A stretch of DNA of 5,707 bases from a virus (lineage: Duplodnaviria > Heunggongvirae > Uroviricota > Caudoviricetes): IMG/VR virus record IMGVR_UViG_2695420430_000007; one strand, written 5' to 3'. Below are positions 1,017 to 5,649 of the stretch, in pieces. How positions within the stretch are numbered: the stretch's first letter is position 1; the number at the start of each line of letters is the position of its first letter. Under the pieces are notes generated by a model, which was not told where the DNA came from, searched no databases, and saw nothing but the letters and a program-made list of their open reading frames with translations. The translations under genes were made by a program, and so were the position numbers.

Positions 1017-1122
1017 AAAGGCCTTATATGTTTGTAGAGACTTATTTTTCACAGACAGCAATGATGCCTGTCAATATATTATCAATATGCGGATTGTTTC
1101 AGTTACAGATGCTTTATTAAGG

Positions 1123-1165
1123 AAAAAAACAGCCAGCACTGACTTTCGGTGGAGAGGTGCTGGCT
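1123..1165. terminator. Third copy of the A-run plus hairpin element (AGCCAGCAC/GTGCTGGCT)
   Basis: A7 at 1123..1129, perfect 9-bp stem at 1131..1139 and 1157..1165. On the minus strand this reads hairpin plus T7. Confidence 0.4.
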
Positions 1166-1235
1166 CAGAAGGATAGTTGGATTTCACATGATACTTATGC
1201 CTGGCGGTATATTTTCTGACAGACAGTGACGGGTG

Positions 1236-1262
1236 TTGTCAAGATATTGTGTCATTTATAAC
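1236..1262 (+). promoter_or_regulatory. Candidate sigma70-type late promoter (pR'-like), TTGTCA-N15-TATAAC; copy also at ~323..349
   Basis: -35-like TTGTCA at 1236..1241 and -10-like TATAAC at 1257..1262. The 15-bp spacer is suboptimal. A terminator lies ~80 bp downstream and the holin ~160 bp downstream, resembling the lambda pR'/tR' layout. Position-based inference only. Confidence 0.3.
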
Positions 1263-1340
1263 CTGAATCAGGGGAGGCCGGAATGTTATCTGGCATTTTT
1301 AGCAGAGCCTGAATGCCATAATCACGGCTCCCGGAGTTGG

Positions 1341-1376
1341 CCGTCAGTGGGTGACACTGGCGGTTTTTTTGTTTTT
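1341..1376 (+). terminator. Intrinsic terminator-like hairpin plus T-run upstream of the pinholin (tR'-like)
   Basis: Stem CCGTCAGTG at 1341..1349 and CACTGGCGG at 1355..1363 (one mismatch), loop GGTGA, then TTTTTTTGTTTTTC. Confidence 0.45.
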
Positions 1377-1420
1377 CTTTACTTTCATTTTCTGTCGGCG
1401 GTGACGGAGACATACATCAG

Positions 1421-1627
1421 ATGGAAAAAATCACAACGGGTGTGTCATACACCACGTCAGCGGTGGGGACGGGATACTGGTTACTGCAGCTGCTGGACAA
1501 AGTCTCTCCGTCCCAGTGGGTGGCAATCGGTGTGCTGGGGAGTCTGCTGTTTGGCCTGCTGACGTATCTGACTAACCTTTATTTCAAGATTAAAGAAGAT
1601 AAGCGTAAGGTGGCGCGGGGAGAGTAG
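1421..1627 (+). CDS. S: Pinholin, phage 21 S21-like class II holin (68 aa)
   Basis: [68 protein letters not shown] aligns along its length with my recollection of S21 (..[51 protein letters not shown]). Two hydrophobic segments and a basic C-terminus. GGAG at 1406..1409. Confidence 0.9.
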
Positions 1628-1848
1628 TCGATGAATAAACAATACGAACTGGTTGTAAAATGAATATTTCTAACTGAAAAAACGTTCCATGAGGTAAGAA
1701 AAGGTCACAGGCAATCAATAACAGGACGTGATGAAAGACCCTTGCATTTGTGCGCTTTCTCTTTAGATAGCAGCAGATACTGAAAATCTGAGTTGTCGGG
1801 GAGTCAGGGATACAGCTGTGCAAGAGTTGGTCATTGTGATTCCATTGA

Positions 1849-1880
1849 AATCCTGTATGCCATGAAGGGCAGGATTTTAT
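1849..1880. terminator. Hairpin AATCCTG-N14-CAGGATT followed by TTTT, next to the stop of the minus-strand ORF
   Basis: 7-bp perfect stem at 1849..1855 and 1870..1876, then TTTTAT. Lies 3 bp beyond the stop of the minus-strand ORF and downstream of the holin on the plus strand. Could serve either strand weakly. Confidence 0.3.
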
Positions 1881-1882
1881 GG

Positions 1883-2197
1883 CTACCTGAGCTTTGGTGA
1901 TAGTAAGTTGAAAATTCGCATTTTTTGCTGACATGCGTAACGAGAATCCCATAAGCAGGGAGGACTTAATTCTTCATTAACCCATGCGTTGATATTATGT
2001 TTCAGCCGTTGAAGCATCAGCGGTGTTAATGTTGTGGTAATAATATCCAGCGTTTTATGTGAGATCTTACCGTAAGGGTCTGCAAGAATGCTGCTTGTTG
2101 CTTCGTTATTATCTGCCATCAGAAGAAGTAACTCTGATTTAACGTTTTCTGTCATTAGTTGTAAAAATCTTCTGCGCAAACTTTCTTTACTGTTCAT
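1883..2197 (-). CDS. Hypothetical 104-aa protein on the opposite strand, inside an AT-rich insert between pinholin and endolysin
   Basis: A 104-codon ORF in AT-rich DNA, where stop codons are frequent. Starts MNSKESLRRRFLQLMTENVK. Perfect TATAAT on the minus strand at 2270..2275. No family recognised; Shine-Dalgarno weak. Confidence 0.45.
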   Translation of the reverse strand: MNSKESLRRRFLQLMTENVKSELLLLMADNNEATSSILADPYGKISHKTLDIITTTLTPLMLQRLKHNINAWVNEELSPPCLWDSRYACQQKMRIFNLLSPKLR

Positions 2198-2314
2198 TTA
2201 TATGGCTTCATTTGTTGTAATCTGCTGCGTCTCAAGGGATATGTTTATGAGAGCGACCATGAGTGTTGGATTATATACCTAACATATCAAGGGATTAGAA
2301 ATCGATAAATCCCC

Positions 2315-2848
2315 ATGAACGAAAAAATAAAATACGGCCTGTCGGCTGCCGTTCTGGCGCTGATTGGTGCAGGTGCTTCTGCGCCTGAAATCCTCGACCA
2401 GTTTCTGGATGAAAAGGAAGGTAACCACACCACGGCATACCGTGATGGTGCGGGGATCTGGACCATCTGCCGTGGTGCCATTCTGGTGGATGGTAAGCCT
2501 GTTATTCCTGGCATGAAGCTGTCAAAGGAAAAATGCGACCGGGTTAATGCCATCGAACGTGACAAGGCTCTGGCATGGGTGGAGAAAAACATCCGGGTGC
2601 CGCTGACCGAACCCCAGAAAGCGGGGATCGCGTCATTCTGTCCGTACAACATTGGCCCCGGTAAGTGCTTCCCGTCGACGTTTTATAAACGAATTAATGC
2701 AGGCGATCGAAAAGGTGCCTGTGAGGCGATTCGCTGGTGGATTAAGGACGGTGGCAGAGACTGCCGTATCCGTTCAAATAATTGCTACGGTCAGGTCTCA
2801 CGGCGTGACCAGGAGAGCGCGCTGGCGTGCTGGGACATCGACAGATAG
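2315..2848 (+). CDS. R: SAR endolysin, T4-lysozyme-like muramidase (GH24), phage 21 R-like (177 aa)
   Basis: N-terminal Gly/Ala-rich weakly hydrophobic segment YGLSAAVLALIGAGASA typical of a signal-anchor-release domain. Catalytic motif E-x8-D-x5-T in EGNHTTAYRDGAGIWT. Overall resemblance to P21 R / RrrD lysozymes as I remember them. Confidence 0.88.
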   Translation: MNEKIKYGLSAAVLALIGAGASAPEILDQFLDEKEGNHTTAYRDGAGIWTICRGAILVDGKPVIPGMKLSKEKCDRVNAIERDKALAWVEKNIRVPLTEPQKAGIASFCPYNIGPGKCFPSTFYKRINAGDRKGACEAIRWWIKDGGRDCRIRSNNCYGQVSRRDQESALACWDIDR

Positions 2849-2937
2849 CAGAATATTTTCCTGAAAAATGACGTTGGCCAACGCGGGTGGATAACACGAA
2901 ATCCTGAAAACTGGTAAAACCTAAGTGAATAAAAGTA

Positions 2938-2977
2938 AAAACCCCGTTTGTTGGCAGCAAGCGGGGTTTTGTGTTTT
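2938..2977 (+). terminator. Rho-independent terminator between endolysin and the spanin genes
   Basis: AAAACCCCG..CGGGGTTTT stem (about 10 bp with wobbles) followed by TTTTGTGTTTT. A-run on the 5' side makes it potentially bidirectional. Confidence 0.6.
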
Positions 2978-3068
2978 CTGACCTTGAGTAAGGCAAGGGA
3001 GAAATTATGGGTAGGGAGGTACTTTCCCTGTGAGGAAGTATAAAAGATTCTTTCTGAGGTTGTCCATT

Positions 3069-3182
3069 ATGAAAGGCATTGAAGTGGAGACGCCAGCCAG
3101 TCTGGATTTAACAAGAGCGGCAGCTTTTGCCATTCGTATTGTGGCCATTGCTGTTCTGGTCTGGGCAATCCGTTGGTGGTGA
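3069..3182 (+). CDS. Hypothetical 37-aa single-pass membrane peptide, stop 1 bp from the Rz start
   Basis: ATG at 3069 with GAGG at 3056..3059 (9-nt spacing). Translation MKGIEVETPASLDLTRAAAFAIRIVAIAVLVWAIRWW has a hydrophobic core and a WW C-terminus. TGA at 3180..3182, Rz ATG at 3184. Too short for the ORF track. Confidence 0.4.
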   Translation: MKGIEVETPASLDLTRAAAFAIRIVAIAVLVWAIRWW

Positions 3183-3183
3183 T

Positions 3184-3651
3184 ATGAACCGTGTTCTGTG
3201 CGTGGTTATCATTGTCCTGCTGGTGGCCTGTGGTGCGCTTAGTCTGGGGCTGAATCATTACCGTGATCACGCCATCATCTACAAAGAGCAGCGCGATAAA
3301 AAAGCCAGTGAGCTGGAGCTGGCGAACGCGACAATTACTGATATGCAGATACGCCAGCGTGATGTCGCTGCACTTGATGCCAGATACTCGAGGGAATTAG
3401 CCGATGCGAGAGCTGAAAATGAAACTCTGCGTGCTGATGTTGCCGCTGGTCGTAAGCGCCTGCGGATCAACGCCACCTGCTCCGGTACCGTGCGTGAAGC
3501 CACCGGCACCTCCGGCGTGGATAATGCAACCGGCCCCCGACTGGCAGACACCGCTGAACGGGATTATTTCATCCTCAGAGAACGGCTGATGGCAATGCAG
3601 AAGCAACTGGAAGGAGCACAGGAATATATCCGTACCCAGTGTATACCGTGA
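3184..3651 (+). CDS. Rz: Rz i-spanin (inner-membrane spanin subunit), 155 aa
   Basis: From ATG 3184: [68 protein letters not shown].. matches my recollection of lambda Rz ([47 protein letters not shown]..). N-terminal TM helix then coiled-coil. The track ORF from 3127 is an upstream in-frame extension. Confidence 0.9.
   Translation: [155 protein letters not shown]
3404..3589 (+). CDS. Rz1: Rz1 o-spanin (outer-membrane lipoprotein), embedded in the +1 frame of Rz
   Basis: MRELKMKLCVLMLPLVVSACGSTPPAPVPCVKPPAPPAWIMQPAPDWQTPLNGIISSSENG: signal peptide with lipobox VSAC, proline-rich mature part, conserved PPAWIMQP..DWQTPLNGIIS as in lambda Rz1. Lies wholly inside Rz in another frame. Confidence 0.88.
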   Translation: MRELKMKLCVLMLPLVVSACGSTPPAPVPCVKPPAPPAWIMQPAPDWQTPLNGIISSSENG

Positions 3652-4116
3652 TGTTTTGTTATGAAGGTGTTACTGGTAACGTTAAGGTAATTTAACAAAG
3701 AGTCAGTTCCGGACTTTATAGTGTGCTCAGTTCATGGCCAAAAACGATTTCTGTGATAAATATTTTGAATATTATTTACAGGTAAATGGAGTGGGGCACA
3801 TGGATAGAAATATTACAATAGAGAATGAAGTATATGCCCGTATTGTATGGGCAGAGAAGGCAAAAACACGGTAATTCCGTGTGTTGCCATGATACCTGAT
3901 TGGCAGAATAGTTGTTTGGTTTTGAGTATATAGTCAGCGTTTTTTGTTCAGTAATTGCTCCCTCAAAAAATAATAAAATAAGGTGATTATTTTTGTTTAT
4001 TATTTAGTTTTTTTTGTGTGTTGTTTTATTGTTTTTGCGTGGTTTGTTTTTTATTGTTATTTCATTAAGGGAAGGTAAATTCAGGATGGCAGTCTGTAGA
4101 TAATCGGAGGTCACTT

Positions 4117-4431
4117 ATGCTACATGATCACGTGGCAGAATGTTTGGAGAAAAAAGGACTGTACCGGAGAGCAGCTGAACGATGGGCAAAAGTGATGGTA
4201 CAGCTAAGTGATGACCAGAAAAGAAAAGTGGCGGCACAGAAACGAGCAGAGTGTTTGCGTAAGGCGCGCCGGACTCCGGTTTCACCGGTGAACCTGACCG
4301 AAATAAAACAAGCGGTCAACAGACTACATTCTGAGTTGGGAATGGGATTTGAAGAGCGGCGGGTATTCCGACGATATAAAGGGACAGGAGAACAGAATAC
4401 GTCCGGAAACGCGCGGTCAAAAAAATGCTAA
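4117..4431 (+). CDS. PerC-family-like small basic protein (Pch-like candidate transcriptional activator), 104 aa
   Basis: GGAGG at 4106..4110, 6 nt before the ATG. N-terminal EKKGLYRRAAERWAKVM resembles the GLWRRAA..RW signature I recall for PerC/Pch. Family assignment from memory; needs an HMM or BLAST check. Confidence 0.55.
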   Translation: MLHDHVAECLEKKGLYRRAAERWAKVMVQLSDDQKRKVAAQKRAECLRKARRTPVSPVNLTEIKQAVNRLHSELGMGFEERRVFRRYKGTGEQNTSGNARSKKC

Positions 4432-4467
4432 AAAATATCTGAGAGAGTTATTGCCTGTTACCATAAG

Positions 4468-4494
4468 AAAAAGCGACTTTAGTGGTCGCTTTTT
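4468..4494. terminator. Bidirectional intrinsic terminator between the convergent PerC-like and YlcI-like genes
   Basis: AAAAAGCGAC-TTTAGTG-GTCGCTTTTT: 6-bp GC stem flanked by A5 and T5, so it is hairpin plus U-run on both strands. Lies between the stop at 4431 (+) and the stop at 4513 (-). Confidence 0.7.
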
Positions 4495-4512
4495 GTGTCA
4501 TATATAAGTCGT

Positions 4513-4737
4513 TTAAGTAAACCTGTCTGAACAGGTGCTCTGGTCGTGTTTGTCTTTGTTGGGTACAAATTGAGAATATTTTTCATTAATTAATCTTCTT
4601 CTGCAGGCTTCAATAACCCACGCTGAAAAATTACCTGAACCTTTCAGGTCAAGAGCGATGTTAATTTGTTCAATTATCTGGTTTGGAAATCGGATGTTGC
4701 GGGTTGTTGTTCTGCGGGTTCTGTTCTTTGATGACAT
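4513..4737 (-). CDS. YlcI-like (DUF3950-like) small protein, 74 aa
   Basis: MSSKNRTRRTTTRNIRFPNQIIEQINIALDLKGSGNFSAWVIEACRRRL.. matches what I remember of E. coli DLP12 YlcI, which sits just upstream of the Nu1 homologue nohD there, as here. From memory, not a search. Confidence 0.55.
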   Translation of the reverse strand: MSSKNRTRRTTTRNIRFPNQIIEQINIALDLKGSGNFSAWVIEACRRRLINEKYSQFVPNKDKHDQSTCSDRFT

Positions 4738-4807
4738 AATGTTGCCCCGTATTCAGTGTTGCTGATTTGTATTATCTGAAGTTGCTTTTACGCTAATTTG
4801 ATGCAGA

Positions 4808-4838
4808 TCAATTAATACGATACCTGCGTAATAATTGA
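4808..4838. promoter_or_regulatory. Imperfect palindrome TCAATTAATACG-N7-CGTAATAATTGA upstream of the YlcI-like gene
   Basis: 12-bp arms with one mismatch, 7-bp spacer, ~70 bp upstream of the minus-strand start at 4737. Candidate operator; function inferred. Confidence 0.3.
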
Positions 4839-4944
4839 TTATTTCTCGTGGTTTGATGGCGTACACACATGTCGTGATAAACCTCATGTAGATGATAATT
4901 ATTATCATTTTCGTGGGTCCTTTCCGGCGATCCGACAGGTTACG

Positions 4945-4956
4945 GGGCGGCGACCT
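4945..4956 (+). other. cos: cosN: lambda-type 12-nt cohesive-end sequence GGGCGGCGACCT
   Basis: 4881..4989 closely matches the lambda right-end/left-end junction as I recall it (..CGACAGGTTACG|GGGCGGCGACCT|CGCGGGTTTTCGCTATTTATGAAAATTTTCCGG). Similarity stops at ~4990 where cosB begins. Confidence 0.85.
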
Positions 4957-4991
4957 CGCGGGTTTTCGCTATTTATGAAAATTTTCCGGGA

Positions 4992-5093
4992 TCCATGTCC
5001 GGTTTCTCTTCAAGTTAACTATATGAAAAATATAAAAACAGGTCTTCTGTGAACCGGACATGAACAAAAAACAGACATGTAAACCGGACATGA
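4992..5093. promoter_or_regulatory. cosB-like region: three copies of AACCGGACATGA (two direct, one inverted) flanking an A/T-rich segment
   Basis: AACCGGACATGA at 5052..5063 and 5082..5093; inverted copy TCCATGTCCGGTT at 4992..5004. A/T-rich 5006..5050 lies between the inverted and direct copies, mirroring the lambda R3-I1-R2-R1 layout with a different repeat sequence. A partial copy CAGACATG sits at 5072..5079. Confidence 0.6.
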
Positions 5094-5139
5094 CCGGTTT
5101 TGTTGTGATTGTGAGGTGAGAGTTTTTGCGAGGTGAGGA

Positions 5140-5649
5140 GTGGCTACGCAGACTGAAGTTGCCAGGCATTTAAGTCTGACCGATCGCCAGCTTCGCAGAT
5201 TGCAGAAATTGCCGGGTGCCCCGATATCGAATAAGCGAGGGCAACTGGATCTGGATGCCTGGCGCGATTTTTACATATCGTATCTGAGGAGAAGTAAAAA
5301 CGATGTGCCTGATGGCGATAGCGAAGACGACTATGAGGAGAAATTGCTTATTGCCAGATGGGAACTGACAGCAGAACAGGCTGTTACACAGCAGTTAAAA
5401 AATGAGGTGTCAAAAGGAAAACTTATTGACACCGGGTTCTGTATTTTTGCCCTCAGTAAGCTGGCAATGGCGTTATCCAGTACGCTTGATTCCATCCCTT
5501 TATCCATGCAGCGACAGTTTCCTGATTTAACACCGCGCCATCTTGACCATCTGAAAACCCTTATTGCGAAGGGGGCAGATCAGTGTGCGCGGGCAGGGGA
5601 TAAATTACCGGATTTACTCGATGAATATATCAGAGCAACAACTGAATAA
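5140..5649 (+). CDS. nu1: Terminase small subunit, Nu1-like (169 aa), GTG start
   Basis: C-terminal part (DTGFCIFALSKLAMALSSTLDSIPLSMQRQFPDLTPRHLDHLKTLIAKGADQCARAGDKLPDLLDEYI) aligns with lambda Nu1 as I recall it (ETAFCTFVLSRIAGEIASILDGLPLSVQRRFPELENRHVDFLKRDIIKAMNKAAALDELIPGLLSEYI). N-terminal ~50 residues are divergent. GTG at 5140 is the first start after an in-frame TGA; GAGG lies immediately upstream. Confidence 0.85.
   Translation: MATQTEVARHLSLTDRQLRRLQKLPGAPISNKRGQLDLDAWRDFYISYLRRSKNDVPDGDSEDDYEEKLLIARWELTAEQAVTQQLKNEVSKGKLIDTGFCIFALSKLAMALSSTLDSIPLSMQRQFPDLTPRHLDHLKTLIAKGADQCARAGDKLPDLLDEYIRATTE

Follow-up and report, generated by a model that had tools for sequence, protein, structure and literature searches.

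Does the open reading frame that lies between the lysis genes and cos in this piece of phage DNA encode a regulator directed at the bacterial host and, if so, which one? The window analyzed here is a 5,707-nucleotide stretch of the IMG/VR virus record IMGVR_UViG_2695420430_000007 (Caudoviricetes), and an initial annotation, made from the letters of the DNA, had proposed a PerC-like regulator carried as a moron. Our results indicate, with little room for doubt, that it belongs to the group 1 pch genes (pchA/B/C type) and encodes the DNA-binding regulator PchA, and that a lambda-like (Sakai Sp4-like) prophage carries it as cargo between Rz and cos. The features on which this reading is built are listed in Table 1.

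Table 1. Coordinates of the features discussed, numbered from the first base of the window
Feature	Position	Strand	Basis
Lysis cassette	1421..3651	+	Pfam Phage_holin_2_1, Phage_lysozyme, Phage_lysis, Rz1; PHROGs
Holin S, P21-type	1421-1627	+	Pfam
Endolysin R (lysozyme)	2315-2848	+	Pfam
Rz	3184-3651	+	Pfam
Rz1, embedded in Rz	3404-3589	+	Pfam
Variable cargo segment, 961 bp, from Rz to the conserved part of the YlcI-like gene	3642..4602		YYZ-2008 comparison, GC
AT-rich 242-bp spacer, presumed pchA promoter/regulatory region and 5' UTR	3875..4116	+	Composition, Sakai identity
Shine-Dalgarno GGAGG	4106..4110	+	6-nt spacer to ATG, read from sequence
pch gene (group 1, PchA-identical), 104 aa	4117..4431, stop codon included	+	ORF, Pfam PerC, Sakai PchA identity
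Hairpin A5-GCGAC / loop / GTCGC-T5, candidate bidirectional intrinsic terminator	4468..4494	both	Folding, sequence
YlcI/YnfO-family (DUF3950) convergent gene, 74 aa, neighbour outside the regulator	4513..4737	-	Pfam DUF3950 E=1.3e-17; NCBIfam YlcI_YnfO_N
cosN, exact lambda 12-mer GGGCGGCGACCT	4945..4956	+	Exact match
Nu1	5140-5649		Pfam

The pch open reading frame has an ATG start, a TAA stop and 104 codons, with a GC content of 0.489. Its product is basic (pI 10.3; 25 K+R versus 12 D+E), and residues 14 to 23 read GLYRRAAERW; both the 104-aa basic protein and the N-terminal PerC/Pch-type motif of the initial annotation were thus borne out. The Pfam search that the annotation had called for matched PerC (PF06069) end to end, with residues 1 to 89 aligned to profile positions 1 to 89 of 90, at 149.3 bits (cut-off, 22.6; E=3.8e-44). 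With this E value, the open reading frame is far beyond chance. PHROG families labelled transcriptional activator also matched the protein, no NCBIfam model did, and no unrelated protein family was found to match it. It is named "PerC family transcriptional regulator" in RefSeq (WP_001303878.1) and "PchABC family transcriptional regulator" in UniRef. A sequence search of the PDB at E<=1 gave no relative. A single-sequence AlphaFold2 model was unreliable (mean pLDDT, 51; pTM, 0.33), and at this low confidence it predicted helices at residues 3-13, 16-27, 32-52 and 60-74, together with a disordered tail.

The protein was identical at 104 of 104 positions to PchA (ECs_1091, NP_309118.1), encoded by prophage Sp4 of O157:H7 strain Sakai, an identity that, together with the PerC match, bears out the proposal of a PerC-like regulator. 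The assignment to group 1 Pch (PchA/B/C) was made with PchA as the sole member compared. At the DNA level, window positions 1100-4594 differed from the Sakai pchA locus at 20 of 3,495 bases (99.4% identity over 3.5 kb). The coding sequence carried a single base difference, at 4144, which is synonymous; positions 3666-4143, covering the entire spacer upstream of pch, were the same base for base, and base 4446, downstream of pch, differed. In addition, 1.5 kb of the pch locus was 100% identical to a lambdoid prophage of E. coli Z1323HEC0108. The gene order around pch is the same in Z1323HEC0108 and in Sakai Sp4, and in both pch sits within a full lambdoid prophage. The Z1323HEC0108 prophage carries further cargo (37096-37623 and 41302 onward), with sodC between the tail assembly genes and J and an Ail/Lom-family gene after J, as well as hokD, dicB and three tRNA genes (Ile, Arg, Arg) after Q.

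Because the PerC domain is common to all Pch paralogues, the Pfam match alone cannot discriminate among them, and the gene might be read as a paralogue that does not activate the LEE, of the group 2 PchD or group 3 PchE type, acting instead to repress curli/csgD or flagella. PchD and PchE have little effect on the LEE and repress curli/csgD or flagella (PMC6265319). However, the full-length identity, in a comparison made with PchA, is to a group 1 member, and the flanking DNA is that of the Sakai pchA locus; the chance of such a paralogue is therefore vanishingly small. A group 2 or 3 identity was rejected on the identity to PchA, given the annotation of Sakai ECs_1091 as pchA.

The initial annotation had placed the gene between the lysis cassette and cos, and this held: pch lies past the end of Rz and before cosN. 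The latter is the window's only exact match to GGGCGGCGACCT and is located 184 bp upstream of Nu1. With holin, endolysin, Rz/Rz1, cosN and Nu1 on its flanks, pch is encoded here on a lambdoid prophage, as expected of group 1 Pch. Within the lysis cassette, a 104-aa open reading frame on the minus strand (1883-2197; phrog_1853; no Pfam match; GC, 0.384) was found between holin and endolysin. At this site, Z1323HEC0108 has a shorter, 273-nt hypothetical gene in RefSeq, the Sakai record annotates one too, and YYZ-2008 has a plus-strand YdfR-family gene instead. The open reading frame looks like a second AT-rich insert, inside the lysis cassette.

The segment that holds pch and a 46-aa open reading frame (3734-3874) has a GC content of 0.386, versus 0.52-0.55 for S, R and Rz. 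The Stx1 phage YYZ-2008 lacks a counterpart of 3642-4602 and has 465 unrelated bases there, and Rz and the YlcI-like gene, which flank the segment, align to YYZ-2008 at about 90% identity. The equivalent slot in K-12 DLP12 is occupied by borD, ybcV and ybcW. Of the features of a moron, absence from the YYZ-2008 site, a deviating base composition and a putative terminator, the latter shared with a neighbour (see below), were found for pch. The label moron is thus reasonable: the AT-rich segment missing from YYZ-2008 and the other genes found in DLP12 speak for it, and a promoter was not pinned down by the sequence scan. The 46-aa open reading frame, on the plus strand, belongs to phrog_2157 (E=2.7e-37; unknown function; GC, 0.348) and is without annotation in the Z1323HEC0108 and Sakai records; a palindrome after it (3866-3882) reads as a terminator on the minus strand only.

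As the initial annotation had stated, pch has its own Shine-Dalgarno sequence, 6 nt from the ATG. The spacer upstream has a GC content of 0.314, with a T-rich tract at about 3996-4060. A sigma-70 scan of 3600-5300 returned 2 sites versus 4.3 expected from shuffles, and since the sites were fewer than in the shuffles, we claim no pch promoter from the sequence. A native pchA promoter that responds to butyrate/Lrp and to LrhA has been reported for this upstream sequence, which Sakai shares (PMC10101121, PMC4456613). An Rfam search of the entire window at E<=0.1 returned nothing, and hence no known small RNA lies within the spacers.

Downstream of pch, a hairpin starts 36 bases past the stop codon and reads AAAAAGCGAC-TTTAGTG-GTCGCTTTTT. 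As a 41-nt RNA, it folded with -14.7 kcal/mol on the plus strand and -11.2 kcal/mol on the minus strand, corresponding to z values of -4.05 and -3.89, respectively, and none of 200 shuffles was as stable. A consensus terminator scan did not list this hairpin, although direct folding shows it clearly, possibly because pairing between its A-run and T-run extends the stem and leaves no free T tail. We infer from these properties that it is probably the terminator of pch. As it is flanked by the stop codons of pch (4431) and of the convergent YlcI/YnfO-family gene, it is common to both genes. Thus, of the dedicated bidirectional terminator initially suggested, folding on both strands agreed with the claim, and "dedicated" had to be dropped.

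To see where the gene occurs, we used a sample of 5,426 complete E. coli genomes. Among these, 673 carried pch (median, 3 copies; maximum, 5), and the copies were at least 99% identical in 682 of 688 records. The Sakai ler gene with the LEE1 promoter was found in 697 genomes, one copy each. A joined query of pch and ler retrieved 699 genomes, and the places were additive (1,877+697=2,574). It follows from the three genome counts that both are present in 671 genomes, i.e., in 99.7% of the pch carriers and 96% of the ler carriers. Adding ler to the query with the 1.5-kb locus gave exactly one extra place in 23 of the 25 closest genomes; the closest, Z1323HEC0108, went from 7 places to 8 and so carries ler too. 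Counts of places in a record were ambiguous for the other 2 of the 25 genomes, and the union test gave the cleaner figure. No complete E. coli genome was colinear with the entire window. The LEE is very probably present in the genome from which the window came, by statistical inference from the 671 of 673 complete genomes. There is a slim chance that the source is among the very few genomes that carry group 1 pch but lack the LEE (2 of 673) or that this pch copy sits on a still-packageable phage. In the former case, PchA would act only on non-LEE, H-NS-silenced targets; in the latter, with native orientation and an intact cos and Nu1, a master activator of the LEE could move between strains.

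The exact protein was found on at least 1,000 public contigs. Among 50,697 deposited phage records, a single one encoded it, a 1.57-kb fragment, and pch is therefore a feature of resident prophages, not of the phages isolated so far. A few records deposited as plasmids (59-420 kb) also contained exact group 1 pch copies; these records may represent phage-plasmids, chromids or contigs binned wrongly. Variants with 78.6% identity occurred on plasmids of 75-84 kb.

These distributions bear on whether pch serves the phage itself, as a late-operon regulator of phage genes whose activation of the LEE would be incidental. The gene follows the late lysis genes and is oriented as they are, and the consensus scan found no plus-strand terminator between Rz and pch, an arrangement from which read-through of pch may be expected. 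Upon SOS induction, pch would then also be read through from the Q-antiterminated late transcript, and this anatomy fits the reported enhancement of group 1 pch transcripts by the SOS response (PMC6265319). Such a phage-serving role is very improbable, however: the related phage YYZ-2008 does without the segment, the deposited phage records are nearly devoid of the gene, its near confinement to ler-positive genomes is unexpected for a phage housekeeping gene, and the published Pch regulon consists of host virulence loci (PMC4764244). We thus retain the reading of pch as a host-directed cargo gene.

A further question is whether the copy has become silent or decaying cargo of a defective prophage, without present function. 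Many pch prophages are ridden with insertion sequences: in Sakai Sp4 the lysis-pchA block is inverted next to IS629 and ISEc8 lies in Nu1, and Z1323HEC0108 has IS1203 just upstream of the holin gene, plus pseudogenes; moreover, the window has an odd duplicated junction at about 615. Against this, the open reading frame, Shine-Dalgarno sequence, upstream region and hairpin are all intact, and the coding sequence equals the functional Sakai copy save the one synonymous change. The near uniformity of the copies among the 688 records suggests purifying selection or recent spread, and Sakai pchA is functional despite its defective prophage (PMC4764244). Loss of function is accordingly unlikely in the extreme, if a shade less so than a phage-serving role, and we favor an intact PchA gene.

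The junction is at the edge of a repeat. Positions 1-256 are a 95.8% copy of 759-1019, and positions 246-614 are a 95.9% copy of 1159-1527. The repeat at 1-617 comprises the 3' end of a SASA-esterase/DUF6645 gene and about the first 35 holin codons, without 139 bp, and is joined at about 615-617 into the middle of a second esterase copy. An exact-match scan of genome contigs gave no match to the junction, which in one piece was also absent from complete E. coli genomes, where its halves were always about 910 bp apart and in the other order. It stems either from recombination between paralogous prophages or from a join made during assembly.

Pch activates the LEE1 promoter about 110-fold in K-12 (PMC4764244). 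This activation is abolished by a double deletion of hns and stpA (PMC4764244), and Pch therefore acts as an anti-silencer. Of note, 88% of the Pch-binding regions are within H-NS-bound, AT-rich regions, occupancy by H-NS/StpA at the LEE and other virulence loci drops with pch expression, and H-NS binding was greatly reduced by a PchA-containing protein mixture in reconstituted LEE1 promoter complexes; no interaction between Pch and H-NS was detected (PMC4764244). According to PMC6265319, which cites Iyoda & Watanabe 2004 and Porter 2005, full ler/espA expression and adherence require the pch genes of group 1 (A, B and C), and those of groups 2 and 3 (D and E) are dispensable for both. The pchA gene is controlled by LrhA and by Lrp/butyrate/LeuO (PMC4456613, PMC10101121).

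As published for the identical protein, Pch binds AT-rich, H-NS-covered DNA, the LEE1 promoter included, and lowers the occupancy of H-NS/StpA/Hha at LEE1, so that ler is de-silenced. Ler in turn activates the other LEE operons as well as effector genes outside the LEE, an activation that Pch enhances, and the outcome is type III secretion and intimate attachment. In lysogens, a promoter of its own within the AT-rich spacer would probably drive pch, integrating the LrhA and Lrp/butyrate/LeuO inputs. By analogy, the window copy would be expected to activate LEE1/ler as Sakai PchA does; the experiments were made with the sequence-identical Sakai protein (PMC4764244). Identity to this experimentally studied protein supports the suggestion that the prophage carries a host-directed transcription factor.

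In EHEC and atypical EPEC, the LEE regulatory cascade is headed by Pch proteins, which prophages encode. The presence of pch therefore very probably marks the window as DNA of an attaching-and-effacing E. coli whose prophage contributes to virulence regulation, and recognition of the gene is useful for annotation and pathotyping. The gene itself is already known: its product is identical to a well-characterised virulence regulator, and it occupies the prophage position usual for that regulator. No new biology is involved, since publications already cover the protein, the locus, the regulation and the anti-H-NS mechanism.

The closest known system is PchA of Sakai Sp4, which has the same protein, an identical upstream spacer and the same lysis cassette-pch arrangement. 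The two loci differ in their rearrangements. In Sp4 (42130-49826), the block from holin to pchA (window 1100-4594) is inverted and abuts IS629, whereas the window has it in native orientation; the YlcI-like gene of Sp4 is truncated, with window positions 4595-4701 missing, whereas that of the window is intact; and ISEc8 interrupts Nu1 in Sp4, whereas the window keeps cos and Nu1 (compared up to 5402). The IS1203 of Z1323HEC0108 is located at window 1127-1130. Judging from these alignments, the surroundings of pch are a hotspot for insertion sequences, and the un-rearranged order is that of the window.

PerC of EPEC belongs to the same Pfam family as the window protein, with 47% identity over 87 residues, as the comparison with PerC advised in the initial annotation showed. 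The motif G-(L/F)-YRRAA-x-RW is found in both, as GFYRRAADRW in the plasmid PerC and GLYRRAAERW in the window protein, and both PerC and Pch activate the LEE1 promoter (PMC4764244). PerC has 89 aa and is plasmid borne, whereas the window protein is prophage cargo with a basic tail 15 aa longer. Moreover, perC is the third gene of perABC on an EAF-type IncF plasmid, and in the plasmid used as comparator it is preceded by an AraC-type open reading frame (perA-like) and an 88-aa open reading frame (perB-like). The pch gene of the window is monocistronic, with Rz, the 46-aa open reading frame and the 242-bp spacer upstream and no AraC-type gene there; accordingly, it is homologous to perC without forming a perABC locus. 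EHEC depends on Pch for LEE expression; in EPEC, PerC is required under certain conditions only (PMC4764244). Finally, lambda bor and DLP12 borD/ybcV/ybcW occupy the same Rz-to-YlcI/Nu1 slot as pch, which is variable and AT-richer than its flanks. The products are unrelated: bor-type genes, located on the opposite strand, specify lipoproteins, and pch, on the strand of the late genes, specifies a regulator.
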